Positions 58,601-61,600 of a stretch of DNA of 64,000 bases are shown piece by piece. The stretch is from Escherichia coli O157:H7 (GTDB lineage Bacteria; Pseudomonadota; Gammaproteobacteria; Enterobacterales; Enterobacteriaceae): assembly GCF_013167455.1 (NCBI RefSeq), contig NZ_CP038328.1, one strand, 5' to 3'. A program made the position numbers. Numbering within the stretch: the stretch's first letter is position 1; each line of letters opens with the position of its first letter.

Positions 58601-61600
58601 TGGCGTTCTATCAGGGCAATTTTCAGGAGGCGGTACTGTGAGTGAATTAGCTATCAGGCTTCAATTGTCGCTGGCATTCGCATCAAAGGAGAATGAGATG
58701 ACCACTTTTACAAAAGAGCAGTTAATCAGTCATGTTAGTGAAAATGTAAAGGCGATGAAATTTGCAGTAAAACAGACAGCATTCAAAAATTCTCTCGAGG
58801 CAATTGAGTTGGATTTAGCACTGGCCCTTGTTGCTCAGGCTTCGCTGGAAGCAGAGCCCGTGCTTTATATGAATCGATTTACCGGAAAGACATTCTCACT
58901 GGAAGAGCAACCCGGTGCTGATAAGGAACCGGAAATATACGTGCCGCTATATGCTGCCCCGCCAGACAGCGCCGCCATGCTTCAGGCTGGAAACTTTCGG
59001 GAAAAAAAGGGTTCGTCAACCAATAATTTTCGGGAAATCTCGGAAACGTCAACCAACTATCCGGTAACTCTGGATGATTGGATAAGCTGTAGTGAGCGAA
59101 TGCCGGATGATGGTCAGCACGTAATTATTTTATGTGATGGCGCATTCGTTCTTTATGCGCAATATCGAGACGGTGAGTTTTTTGATGTAGTCCGTAATGG
59201 TGATGAATTTTTCGAAACACAGAGCCGCAATGTAACCGACTGGATGCCGCTACCAGAACCGCCGCAGGAGGTGCGCCAATGATCTGGCCTGAAGCCTTTG
59301 CAATTACAGGCGTTGCTATAGCTATTGATTTTTTAGTATATGTTATTTGTCGGTGGGGGTAAAAACGTTCGCCGGGATTCACACCAAAGGAGGGAATATG
59401 TCGGATGATATTTCACTGGCAATGGAAGGTGCGCTGGCTGTTATTGCTGTTGTGGGCGTTTACTGCCTGGTTGTGTTTTTGATGGATCGACTAGGGAACT
59501 GAATTCATTACGATATGGGAATTCCCATATCGGGTAAAAACGGTTTGCGGTAAAGCGAGAGTTAAGTAGAATTGCTGCGGGTGCTTGAGGCTGTCTGCCT
59601 CGGGCATGCCACCGTAAGGCAGACAGAGAAAAGCCCCAGTTAACATTACGCGTCCTGCAAGACGCCTAACATTAATCTGAGGCCAATTTCATGCTAGACA
59701 CATGTAGGTTAGCCTCTTACGCGCCGAAAGGCAAGGAGAAGCAGGCTATGAAGCAGCAAAAGGCGATGTTAATCGCCCTGATCGTCATCTGTATTACCGT
59801 CATAGTGACGGCACTGGTAACGAGGAAAGACCTCTGCGAGGTACGAATCCGAACCGGCCAGACGGAGGTCGCTGTCTTCACAGCTTACGAACCTGAGGAG
59901 TAAGAGACCCGGCGAGGGAGAAATCCCTCGCCACCTCTGATGAATCAGGCATCCTCAACGCACCCGCACTTAACCCGCTTCGGCGGGTTTTGTTTTTTCC
60001 TGGCATTCTGGTTTACAATTCGCACGCCAGCCTGAACAACTGGCACCTGCTGCGCCAGCAGAGACAACCGATGGCGCACGATACCAAATTATACAATTCT
60101 GATGATTCTGCCGTCTTTGCCAGCAGGCGCGGACGGTGTTTTTACGCATTCAAATCTGACTGGTACCAGCATCCCCCATGCACTGAAGAACAGGCCGAAT
60201 GGCTCATTCAGTGTTACCGCAGGCGCGGATGCGAGGTTAAAAAAGCCCTTAGCCTCGACTACCGTCACTGGATAATCTCCGTCAGGCTCCCTTACTCCGA
60301 ACGGCCACCGCGTCCGTCCCGCACATTCCAGCAACGGATCTGGAGGTAATGTGCGGGTATTACTTCGACCTGTTCTGGTACCGGAACTCGGTCTGGTTAT
60401 CGTTAAGCCAGGCCGTGAATCAATGTCAGCATTCCATAACGGCAGAATACTGGTGGAGCCGGAACCAAAAAGCATGCGAGCTCTGCCGTCCGGGGTTGTA
60501 CCTGCCGTTCACCAGCCGCTGGCGGAAGATAAATCACTACTGCCATTTTTCAGCGATGAGCGGGTGATCCGTGCTGCGGGTGGCGCTGGTGCACTGTCTG
60601 ACTGGTTATTACGTCACGTGAAATCCTGCCAGTGGCTACACGGTGATTATCATCACAGCGAAACCGTCATTCACCGTTACGGTACCGGCGCGATGGTGTT
60701 GTGCTGGCACTGCGACAACCAGCTGCGGGAGCAGACATCTGATTCACTGGATCAACTTGCTCAACAGAATCTGGCCGCCTGGATGATTGACATCATCCGT
60801 CACGCAATGAATGGCGCACAGGAGCGTGAATTATCTCTGGCTGAATTATCCTGGTGGGCGGTCCGCAATCAGGTGGCGGACGCGCTACCGGAAGCGGTAT
60901 TACGTCGTTCGCTGGGGTTGCGTGCGGAAAAAATCCGCTCCGTATACCGTGAAAGCGACATCATACCGGGAGAACAGACCGCCACCAGCATACTGAAGCA
61001 GCGCACAAAAAATATTGCGCTACCGCCTCACACCCACCAGCAACAGAACCCACCACAGGAAAAGACGGTGGTCAGCATTGCCGTTGATCTGGAGTCTCCG
61101 GAATCCTTCATGAAACGACCTAAACGTCGCCGCTGGGTAAATGAGAAATACACACGCTGGGTAAAGACACAGCCGTGTGCGTGTTGTGGTAAGCCAGCGG
61201 ACGATCCTCATCATCTGATTGGTCATGGTCAGGGCGGAATGGGAACAAAATCCCACGATATTTTCACGCTACCGCTGTGTCGGGAGCATCACAACGAGCT
61301 TCATGCGGATCCGCTGGCGTTCGAAGAAAAGCATGGTTCCCAGGTTGATTTAATTTTTCGTTTTCTTGATCACGCCTTTGCAACCGGCGTGCTCGGGTAA
61401 AAGAGGTTACTGATGCGTATAGAGTTTGTTTTGCCTTACCCGCCGACGGTGAACACCTACTGGCGACGTCGTGGCAGCACATATTTTGTATCAAAAGCCG
61501 GTGAGCGTTATCGCCGGGATGTGGCACTTATTGTTCGCCAGCAGCGGCTGAAATTAAACCTGTCCGGAAGGCTGGTGATAAAGATTATTGCAGAGCCACC

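Follow-up and report, generated by a model that had tools for sequence, protein, structure and literature searches.

Within a 64,000-nucleotide stretch of the Escherichia coli O157:H7 genome (assembly GCF_013167455.1, contig NZ_CP038328.1; hereafter the window), two short open reading frames, ORF1 and ORF2, lie between a DUF551-domain gene of the modular Ea22/EaA type and a hok type I toxin locus (Table 1). The host element would be a lambdoid prophage of the E. coli O157 type. Both frames appear to be accessory cargo of its early region, with the replication genes on one side and the DUF968/RusA genes on the other. In identical E. coli O157 loci the PGAP annotation labels the upstream gene 'DUF551 domain-containing protein' and the hokD product 'type I toxin-antitoxin system toxin HokD'; ORF2 carries the label hypothetical protein. 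Our overall reading, which we consider likely, is that the locus holds two separate and genuine conserved genes for single-helix membrane peptides, unrelated to each other and carried as independently mobile cargo, not as a coupled pair.

Table 1. Features between the DUF551-domain gene and the hok locus, in window coordinates
Feature	Position	Strand	Remarks
DUF551-domain gene, Ea22/EaA-type modular early accessory protein	58638..59282	+	ORF; Pfam DUF551 match
ORF1 Shine-Dalgarno AGGAGG	59266..59271	+	Inside the DUF551 coding sequence (P-Q-E-V); carried by the last DUF551 codons
ORF1, 27 aa, MIWPEAFAITGVAIAIDFLVYVICRWG	59279..59362	+	One predicted transmembrane helix flanked by W3 and W26; ATGA coupling
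11-bp direct repeat GGGTAAAAACG, left copy	59357..59367	+	Overlaps the ORF1 stop codon; match to right copy verified
ORF2 Shine-Dalgarno AAGGAGG	59387..59393	+	-12.1 kcal/mol
ORF2, 34 aa, MSDDISLAMEGALAVIAVVGVYCLVVFLMDRLGN	59398..59502	+	Acidic N-terminus, then one predicted transmembrane helix; identical to WP_001278450.1 and XECs145
Perfect 22-bp palindrome CGATATGGGAATTCCCATATCG	59511..59532		3' end of the ORF2 cassette
11-bp direct repeat GGGTAAAAACG, right copy	59532..59542	+	175 bp from the left copy
Probable hok promoter	59544..59572	+	TTTGCG, 17-nt spacer, TAGAAT; called from its position before the hok mRNA leader
hok mRNA leader and sok antisense region	59579..59753	+	Rfam RF01794, 116.9 bits, E = 1.8e-27
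mok (from 59691) and hokD (59748-59903), type I toxin gene	59691..59903	+	ORF call and PGAP

The DUF551 gene ends, by direct reading of the sequence, with the TGA at 59280-59282, which the ATG of ORF1 (59279-59281) overlaps as ATGA, with the AGGAGG 7 nt before that ATG. The Shine-Dalgarno (SD) element of ORF2 sits 4 nt before its own ATG, and this start lies 35 nt after the ORF1 stop, so that ORF2 is coupled to nothing. The preliminary description of the locus had given these lengths, overlap and ribosome-binding sites correctly; its further proposal that both frames are translationally coupled to the DUF551 gene holds for ORF1 and fails for ORF2. Both SD elements are exceptionally strong, with anti-SD duplex energies (-11.6 kcal/mol for ORF1) that fall in the top 0.2% and top 0.1%, respectively, of the 2193 ATGs of the window. 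In Kyte-Doolittle hydropathy, the best 19-residue segment reaches 2.31 in ORF1 (residues 6-24) and 2.72 in ORF2 (residues 11-29), in agreement with the earlier prediction that each peptide is essentially one transmembrane helix. A strong SD combined with transmembrane-grade hydrophobicity occurs in only three of the 475 ATG-initiated ORFs of 20-40 aa in the window, and ORF1 and ORF2 are two of these three; the combination is more than chance. Both products have at most 50 aa and one hydrophobic segment of bilayer length, as expected of small single-pass membrane proteins, and they are predicted to insert into the inner membrane with an N-out, C-in topology.

A degenerate-pattern scan of IMG/VR, in which inter-anchor distances of 45-57 nt were allowed, returned at least 120 ORF1 loci, all with a distance of exactly 51 nt. 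Because the pattern fixes codons 3-7 and 25-28, conservation in these codons is partly by construction, and the unbiased evidence resides in the interior codons, the start, the length and the variants outside the pattern. None of the 65 distinct nucleotide variants contains an internal stop, and the other two frames are closed in 65/65 and 62/65 of them. In the 17 interior codons free of the pattern, the first, second and third codon positions have variabilities of 0.11, 0.054 and 0.19, and pN/pS is 0.44 in frame versus 0.67 and 1.94 in the two alternative frames. Of 54 distinct upstream contexts, 52 provide ORF1 with an ATG start; the upstream gene ends most often with CGA (25) or CAA (16), giving this ATG, and 89% of the contexts retain an SD-like element (median -9.5 kcal/mol). 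The frame is likewise kept in variants that the pattern does not capture: loci L002 and L003, which share a 6-nt in-frame deletion, locus L127, and phage 933W. For both ORFs, frames, lengths, starts and SDs persist in copies whose DNA identity is just 72-80% and whose changes favour the third codon position, and the loss of reading frame in homologous regions that would have spoken against translation was seen for neither. On this substitution pattern ORF1 is a real protein-coding gene, as the preliminary description had supposed of both frames.

ORF1 moves together with the 3' ends of genes of the Ea22/DUF551 type, and at least five unrelated kinds of gene lie upstream of it. It is present in 94 phage records (including 933W, VT2-Sakai, BP-4795 and the virulent phage Av-05) and in 181 plasmids, the taxonomic range being taken from phage, plasmid and protein-database names. 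Some copies lie far from any hok locus, beside xis/int, in virulent phages or in P1-like plasmids. An ORF1-like frame was looked for and not found in the CPS-53 region of K-12 (yfdS), a gene that is named together with DUF551 in PMC4776307. The family is of fixed length and is left unannotated in deposited phage records and in RefSeq, and its database relatives all measure 25-71 aa. Neither ORF1 nor ORF2 had a significant match in PHROGs, NCBIfam, PADLOC, Pfam or PDB sequences, and the weak PHROG matches were to families to which no function is assigned. That of ORF1 aligns residues 7-25 with the C-terminal part of a 46-position profile at E = 0.01, below a safe threshold; phrog_38566 and phrog_4493, the families weakly matched by ORF1, are unnamed, and the 46-position profile was probably built from N-terminally over-extended 45-aa calls of ORF1. 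A set of 121-aa proteins clustered with ORF1 was considered as a candidate DUF551-ORF1 fusion family and rejected, as these are ordinary DUF551 proteins that end before ORF1 and were grouped with it by a clustering artefact.

ORF2 occupies a 175-bp cassette composed of its SD, the frame and the palindrome, bounded on both flanks by the 11-bp direct repeat and inserted between ORF1 and the hok promoter; the corresponding empty site in 933W reads TGGAGATAAAAACGGTTTGCGG. As RNA, the palindrome is predicted to fold into a hairpin with a 9-bp stem and an AAUU loop, lacking a U-tract. The window has no second copy of it; the palindrome is imperfect in L127 and absent from a third ORF2 subtype, which is 29 aa long, starts with GTG behind an SD of its own and retains both the helix and the MD(R/H)L tail. 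In all three subtypes ORF2 stops 40-70 nt short of the hok -35 box or its remnant, in flanks that otherwise differ. Compared with its diverged copy in L127, the ORF2 of the window has a pS of 0.49 and a pN of 0.11 (ratio 0.22), and the ORF1-ORF2 spacer is unalignable except for the SD; the diversity of ORF2 is small, with the three subtypes mostly above 90% identity, and such ratios come from few pairwise comparisons of 34 codons. An exhaustive HMMER search with ORF2 returned only close E. coli relatives.

ORF2 corresponds to XECs145, which ribosome profiling had already found translated in an uninduced culture of O157 Sakai and which was reported as a novel intergenic gene with a predicted 'inner membrane' location (Hücker et al. 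2017, PMC5597208). In that study XECs145 in LB reaches a RIBOseq RPKM of 346 vs an RNA value of 79, with a coverage of 0.99 and an RCV of 4.35, compared with a mean RCV of 1.55 for short annotated genes, although reads from a multi-copy prophage region could partly stem from spontaneously induced cells. The accessible part of the paper reports no growth defect of Sakai in LB, and describes neither the cassette structure nor the hok linkage. There XECs145 has 54 aa and an ATA start, whereas we place the start at 59398 (34 aa) because of the SD and the conservation pattern of the upstream region. The call for ribosome occupancy made in the preliminary description is thus answered for ORF2 alone; the published screen left out ORFs below 30 aa, and ORF1 has 27. 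From its conservation, together with these published footprints, ORF2 is also a real protein-coding gene, and it behaves like a lysogen-expressed 'moron', because it is translated in lysogen cultures without deliberate induction. No convincing sigma-70 promoter that would explain this expression was found just upstream, and sequence strings of the locus were absent from the transcription-start supplements for EDL933. An antisense RNA over the ORF2 SD, proposed from a 9/12 promoter match on the minus strand, was rejected because the match is at chance level and not conserved.

ORF1 and ORF2 are unrelated and independently mobile. ORF1 is followed directly by the hok promoter sequence, without ORF2, in 933W and in 31 of 113 IMG/VR loci; ORF2 occurs without ORF1 in L131 and without hok in L025 and at six of the eight listed places of variant P0004; and hok is common without ORF2. 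With at least five kinds of upstream gene for ORF1, a separate cassette for ORF2 and each frame found alone, the earlier view of the two as a tandem that belongs with the DUF551 gene is not supported.

One alternative, among the roles suggested in the preliminary description, is that one or both peptides are type I-like membrane toxins or holin-like lysis modulators working with the neighbouring Hok. Their size and hydrophobicity match those of known type I toxins, ORF2 always adjoins the hok promoter or its remnant, ORF1 directly precedes hok in a large share of the loci, and HokW is reported to aid the release of phage Sp5 (PMC8621323). That paper, on hokW-sokW, and the Pas sRNA preprint make no mention of small ORFs upstream of hok. 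Against this, both ORFs have exposed, very strong SDs behind short leaders, and the spacer between them, conserved only at the SD, offers no apparent conserved antisense or sequestering RNA. In a search for a sok-like antisense or structured leader of either ORF, the Rfam sok model matched only the hok leader region, downstream of both, and minus-strand promoter-like sites occur at chance frequency, with no excess. No match to HOK_GEF (PF01848) appeared in a Pfam scan of ORF1 and ORF2 variants, nor in PHROG or NCBIfam. On the holin side, the sole Pfam match came from one of six sequences (LydA holin, E = 0.039), too weak for membership of the family, and a prophage with the identical module carries an annotated class II holin and lysozyme about 4 kb downstream. 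ORF2 also remains intact where hok has been replaced. For ORF2, the toxin and holin-like ideas are weakened because the frame is translated in normal growth (at high efficiency in a lysogen; PMC5597208) and shows neither a sequestered SD nor a conserved antisense element; for the locus as a whole we regard such a role as unlikely.

The constant position of ORF2 before the hok -35 box and the palindrome that stands between the two could alternatively mean that ORF2 and its hairpin form a cis element of the hok locus, shielding the hok promoter and the 5' end of its mRNA against read-through of early transcription, with the peptide irrelevant. The purifying selection on ORF2 amino acids and the retention of the helix across subtypes speak against this, as do the missing palindrome of the 29-aa subtype, the many hok loci without the cassette and the ORF2 copies kept without hok, and we judge this explanation very improbable. 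For ORF1 one may ask whether it is no separate protein at all, only a membrane anchor that -1 ribosomal frameshifting would attach to the upstream Ea22/DUF551 protein: its frame is -1 with respect to that of the upstream gene, some loci are open for about 18 codons upstream in the ORF1 frame (the origin of 45-aa database entries), and an actual fusion exists in one contig, L095. Against such a fusion, the ORF1 ATG is kept through the synonymous choice of CGA or CAA, no slippery heptamer was seen in the last 60 nt, the first possible start after a stop in the ORF1 frame of the window is the ATG at 59279, and the database relatives include no long-fusion family; there is next to nothing left to recommend it. 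Nor do we give appreciable credence to the idea that both ORFs just happen to be open within a conserved non-coding hok flank, which the evidence already contradicts. The nucleotide sequence of this flank is indeed highly conserved among close relatives and could alone preserve short frames in near-identical copies, but it would account neither for the coding-type persistence in diverged copies, nor for ORF1 in places remote from hok, nor for the ribosome footprints on ORF2 (PMC5597208).

If the two ORFs are, as we favour, separate genes for membrane peptides, their closest counterparts in kind would be the small regulators of the AcrZ, MgrB, KdpF and MgtS class, single helices of 25-50 aa that pack on a larger membrane protein, a mode that the small-residue ladder of ORF1 fits; ORF2 resembles them further in being expressed in growing cells. 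There is no sequence kinship, the best match (KdpF, 14.7 bits vs a cutoff of 26.85) being at chance level, and those regulators are members of chromosomal regulons, whereas ORF1 and ORF2 are phage-borne. With Hok/Gef (PF01848) the two share small size, hydrophobicity and residence in the same prophage module, and ORF2 is physically linked to the hok promoter; unlike Hok, they are shorter and lack a mok-like overlapping frame, a sok-like antisense, a long folded leader and a periplasmic Cys-containing tail. Like lambdoid 'morons' and small exclusion or membrane proteins, both are accessory, non-essential and independently mobile cargo between conserved genes, with boundaries at gene junctions, and ORF2 is moron-like in being a discrete 175-bp indel relative to the 933W empty site and in its translation without deliberate induction. 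Its cassette differs from a phage moron in having no recognisable promoter or terminator of its own, since no plus-strand promoter-like site lies upstream and the palindrome has no U-tract.

The proposed mechanism for ORF1 is that of a last cistron of Ea22/DUF551-type accessory genes. Its product would be made by coupled re-initiation, because the ATG overlaps the upstream stop and the SD lies inside the upstream coding sequence, and its timing and rough amount would follow those of the upstream protein. The peptide is predicted to span the membrane once, with W3 and W26 at the interfaces, Glu5 towards the N-terminus and Arg25 towards the C-terminus. The conserved ladder of small residues (G11, A13, A15, A17) suggests packing on another helix, either of its own copies or of a host or phage membrane protein, and helix-helix binding would then be the mode of action. 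Our best guess for the biological role is that a membrane protein is modulated, for instance in exclusion or host takeover, and that the peptides do not kill; superinfection exclusion, or another membrane-modulating role, is possible. The exo-xis/ea accessory region influences the lysis-lysogeny decision. A more ambitious joint reading, which we put forward as a long shot, makes ORF1 a widespread, essentially unannotated family of 27-aa Trp-flanked helices that in Stx phages, P1-like phage-plasmids and virulent Vequintavirinae is invariably encoded as the coupled final cistron of an early gene of the Ea22/EaA/DUF551 type. Its members might act at the membrane together with those lysis-lysogeny modulators, perhaps tethering them or relaying their effect to an inner-membrane target; ORF2, expressed in the lysogen, would on this reading adjust how sensitive the membrane is to Hok-type toxins or to a superinfecting phage.

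What is new here is the ORF1 family, ORF2 having already been annotated and reported as XECs145. The find is modest, and neither gene changes any concept unless a phenotype is found. Few prophages have been studied as much as Stx phages such as 933W and VT2-Sakai, yet their records miss a conserved 27-codon gene between L0139 and sokW. PGAP does not call ORF1; with this gene added and the ORF2 start corrected, about 12% of complete E. coli genomes are better annotated, as are many records of phages and phage-plasmids. ORF2 offers a clean case of a minimal cargo cassette expressed from a prophage, and the strict coupling of ORF1 to Ea22/DUF551-class genes provides a link to the poorly understood exo-xis/ea accessory region.

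Hundreds of complete E. coli genomes, mostly O157:H7, contain prophage DNA identical to the segment that carries the two small reading frames, and a 241-bp query spanning both frames was present in 680 of 5426 complete genomes. After the replication genes comes an Ea22/DUF-type accessory block, followed in order by the DUF551 gene, ORF1, ORF2, the hok/sok toxin-antitoxin locus, a small gene for a hypothetical protein, DUF968 and RusA; this order places ORF1 and ORF2 on the rightward early transcript, between the replication genes and DUF968/RusA. The preliminary description had regarded both ORFs as translationally coupled in tandem to the DUF551 gene, which holds for ORF1 but not for ORF2, whose start lies 35 nt past the ORF1 stop. 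The strong ribosome-binding sites and single hydrophobic helices that it proposed were borne out: the Shine-Dalgarno (SD) sequences of ORF1 and ORF2 are among the strongest 0.2% and 0.1%, respectively, for the 2193 ATGs of the window, each peptide contains a 19-residue segment with a Kyte-Doolittle mean above 2.3, and the two properties coincide in only 3 of the 475 small ATG ORFs of the window. The third such ORF (MVGRYRFEFILIILILCALIAARFYLS) encodes a peptide, named "hypothetical protein", whose exact sequence occurs in at least 1000 contigs and is widespread in Enterobacteriaceae, and which we presume to resemble the K-12 small protein YdgU.

Features of the ORF1-ORF2 locus and related elements in the window
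Feature	Position	Strand	Remarks
DUF551 stop	TGA 59280-59282	+	read from sequence
ORF1	ATG 59279 to 59362	+	27 aa; ATGA overlap with DUF551 stop; AGGAGG 7 nt upstream
ORF2	59398-59502	+	34 aa; AAGGAGG 4 nt before ATG
Palindrome CGATATGGGAATTCCCATATCG	59511-59532	both	perfect 22 bp; unique in window; EcoRI site inside
Repeat GGGTAAAAACG, two copies	59357-59367 and 59532-59542		bracket 175 bp
isrK-like Rfam match	59912-59993	+	RF01394; 27.7 bits (gathering score 50); E = 0.0017
Terminator hairpin	59972-59989		overlapped by isrK-like match
Third SD/hydrophobic ORF	31742-31825	-	27 aa; SD -10.0 kcal/mol; transmembrane-grade helix

On comparative sequence evidence, ORF1 is a real gene that has been left unannotated in deposited phage records and in RefSeq. 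Diverged copies in Stx2a_1447 (80% DNA identity) and BP-4795 (72%) keep a frame of 27-28 codons, the ATGA overlap and the motif xWP(E/D)AF...(C/F)RWG. IMG/VR was scanned with a degenerate pattern that takes the two end motifs of ORF1 as anchors and permits 45-57 nt between them; at least 120 loci were retrieved, and the anchor spacing was exactly 51 nt in all matches listed. The pattern, which leaves 17 interior codons unconstrained and does not include the start codon, partly determines the make-up of this collection. Conservation of the frame in related prophages, a check proposed in the preliminary description, was evident among the matches listed: no internal stop was found in 65 distinct nucleotide variants, the other two frames were closed in 65/65 and 62/65 of them, pN/pS was 0.44 for the ORF1 frame versus 0.67 and 1.94 for the two alternatives, and variability at positions 1, 2 and 3 of the 17 interior codons was 0.11, 0.054 and 0.19. 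In the 54 distinct upstream contexts among these matches, the start was ATG in 52 and an SD-like element was detected in 89%; the last codon of the upstream gene, which creates the ATG, was CGA in 25 and CAA in 16, and because CGA is rare among the E. coli Arg codons, its use looks selected. Outside the pattern, the frame is likewise preserved in two loci with a 6-nt in-frame deletion (L002, L003), in gut metagenome locus L127 (MTLPDAFAIVGITIAIAIIVYSICRWL) and in 933W (MTWPEAFANVGTVMAVVLVVYSICRWR). Conserved residues among the matches listed are G11, A13, A15, A17, Y21, I23, C24 and R25, with W3 and W26 at the helix ends.

Using tblastn, ORF1 was found in 94 phage records, including 933W, VT2-Sakai, Min27, Stx1 and Stx2 phages, BP-4795 and Av-05, a virulent phage of the Vequintavirinae. 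It also occurs in 181 plasmids (by organism name, 155 from Escherichia, 25 from Salmonella and 1 from Klebsiella), of which 174 are predicted to be non-mobilizable and most, among the matches listed, measure 80-130 kb. Since P1-like phages, RCS47 and SJ46 among them, carry related sequence as well, most of these plasmids are probably P1-like phage-plasmids. The gene lies unannotated between L0139 and sokW in 933W, and likewise in Av-05, ArgO145 and RefSeq O157 genomes; a few GenBank submissions do annotate it, under the names "bacteriophage protein" or "hypothetical protein", and some of these calls are falsely extended at the N-terminus, to 45 aa. The genes upstream, not always DUF551, represent at least five C-terminal families that are unrelated to one another, and many have a modular N-terminus resembling Ea22/EaA. 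Downstream, the hok promoter follows directly in 31 of the 113 IMG/VR loci among the matches listed, the ORF2 cassette in 17 and the next exo-xis gene towards xis/int in 30; several of the other 35 contexts are GC-rich hairpins as judged by eye. The 90%-identity clusters holding ORF2 and ORF1 include unrelated long proteins, namely a 789-aa Stappia xanthine dehydrogenase and 121-aa Shigella DUF551 proteins; the latter, examined as candidate ORF1 fusions, contain no ORF1 and represent an artefact of clustering very short sequences.

ORF2 is likewise a real gene, already on record; its range is narrow, and it is distinct from ORF1. It is annotated by PGAP (WP_001278450.1), and its relatives in protein searches are of E. 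coli type only. Ribosome occupancy, on which the proposed translation of ORF2 depended, is documented in the profiling study of O157 Sakai by Hücker et al. (2017), where ORF2 (XECs145) shows in LB an RNA RPKM of 79.1, a footprint RPKM of 346.1, an RCV of 4.35 and a coverage of 0.99, and in BHI corresponding RNA, footprint and RCV values of 121, 150 and 1.14, compared with an average RCV of 1.55 for the short annotated genes of that study (PMC5597208). The cultures were grown without deliberate induction, the authors' classifier called XECs145 "real" with a predicted inner-membrane location, and the gene was delimited as 54 aa from an ATA start (PMC5597208). The SD, and the fact that diverged copies are no longer similar further upstream, instead place the start at the ATG at 59398. 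In L127, 21 of 102 ORF2 coding positions differ (pS 0.49, pN 0.11, ratio 0.22, from few sequences), and the spacer 5' of the gene is alignable with the window only at CAAAGGAGGGAAT. A third subtype (29 aa, GTG start, own SD), found in locus L061, phage HannyBb and E. coli B REL606, retains the helix and an MD(R/H)L tail, and every subtype ends shortly 5' of a hok promoter. In HannyBb (PP925841.1, L151, 908-1197) two minus-strand "hypothetical proteins", CDS0048 and CDS0049, are annotated over this plus-strand gene, whose GTG start is separated from an AGGAG by 6 nt and which lies immediately 5' of the hok promoter; this part of the record is probably misannotated.

The hok promoter abuts the ORF1 stop in 933W and in many further loci (TGGAGATAAAAACGGTTTGCGG...GTTAAGTAGAAT). 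The 175 bp between the GGGTAAAAACG repeats of the window comprise the ORF2 SD, ORF2 and the palindrome, and reflect either an insertion or a deletion between repeats. As it has no U-tract on either strand, the palindrome does not qualify as a canonical terminator; it may instead bind a protein or form a hairpin that stabilises RNA, and it accompanies the 34-aa ORF2 subtype only. PPompW phages have lost ORF2 by another deletion, at CGCCAGG microhomology: in PPompW_EH1846 (LC567839.1, L150, 1190-1260), beside the paa/adfO adhesin gene, the cassette is deleted between two CGCCAGG copies, so that only the palindrome, hok and the final 9 nt of ORF2 are left, and the undeleted counterpart L131 has ORF2 and hok and lacks ORF1. 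At L025 and L030, hok is replaced right after its -10 box and ORF2 is intact. Exchange of hok/sok directly after the -10 remnant GAGAGTCAAGTAGATG (L025 3290-3480; L154-L161) is a common variant of the module, in which a terminator-like hairpin is followed by convergent genes for a 214-aa protein and a 408-aa PAPS-reductase/DUF3440 protein, a pair that we take to resemble IbrB/IbrA. The common ORF2 variant P0004 has no adjacent hok in 6 of 8 places among the matches listed. ORF1 and ORF2 each occur apart from the other and are therefore independent modules, neighbours here by coincidence.

Neither peptide had a significant match in Pfam, NCBIfam, PADLOC or PDB sequences, and PHROGs yielded only weak matches to families of unknown function. 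Apart from sok/hok, Rfam gave no significant element in the area. The weak isrK-like match lies directly 3' of the toxin gene hokD, where it overlaps the 3' end of the hok mRNA; rather than an sRNA, it probably represents the fbi/terminator structure of the hok 3' region.

Both peptides would insert in the inner membrane with one helix each. Production of ORF1 would track that of the early accessory protein encoded upstream, through coupled re-initiation, and the peptide may act by helix-helix packing, the only clue being its ladder of small residues. That ORF1 is instead an anchor added to the upstream protein by frameshifting is disfavoured by its conserved ATG and by the absence of fusion proteins. 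ORF2 may be a cargo peptide expressed in the lysogen; no source of lysogen transcription through it was found among promoter-like sites upstream or in the EDL933 transcription-start supplements. A killing role is less likely, as ORF2 is well translated in growing cells, its SD is exposed, it has no conserved antisense element and it is retained where hok is absent. A purely cis-regulatory function is disfavoured as well, since selection acts on its amino-acid sequence.

As judged from sequence comparison, ORF1 thus represents a conserved family of predicted small membrane-protein genes absent from deposited phage record and RefSeq annotation, and ORF2 an already recorded gene for a predicted small membrane protein. 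The finding is real and tidy, and ordinary in kind.
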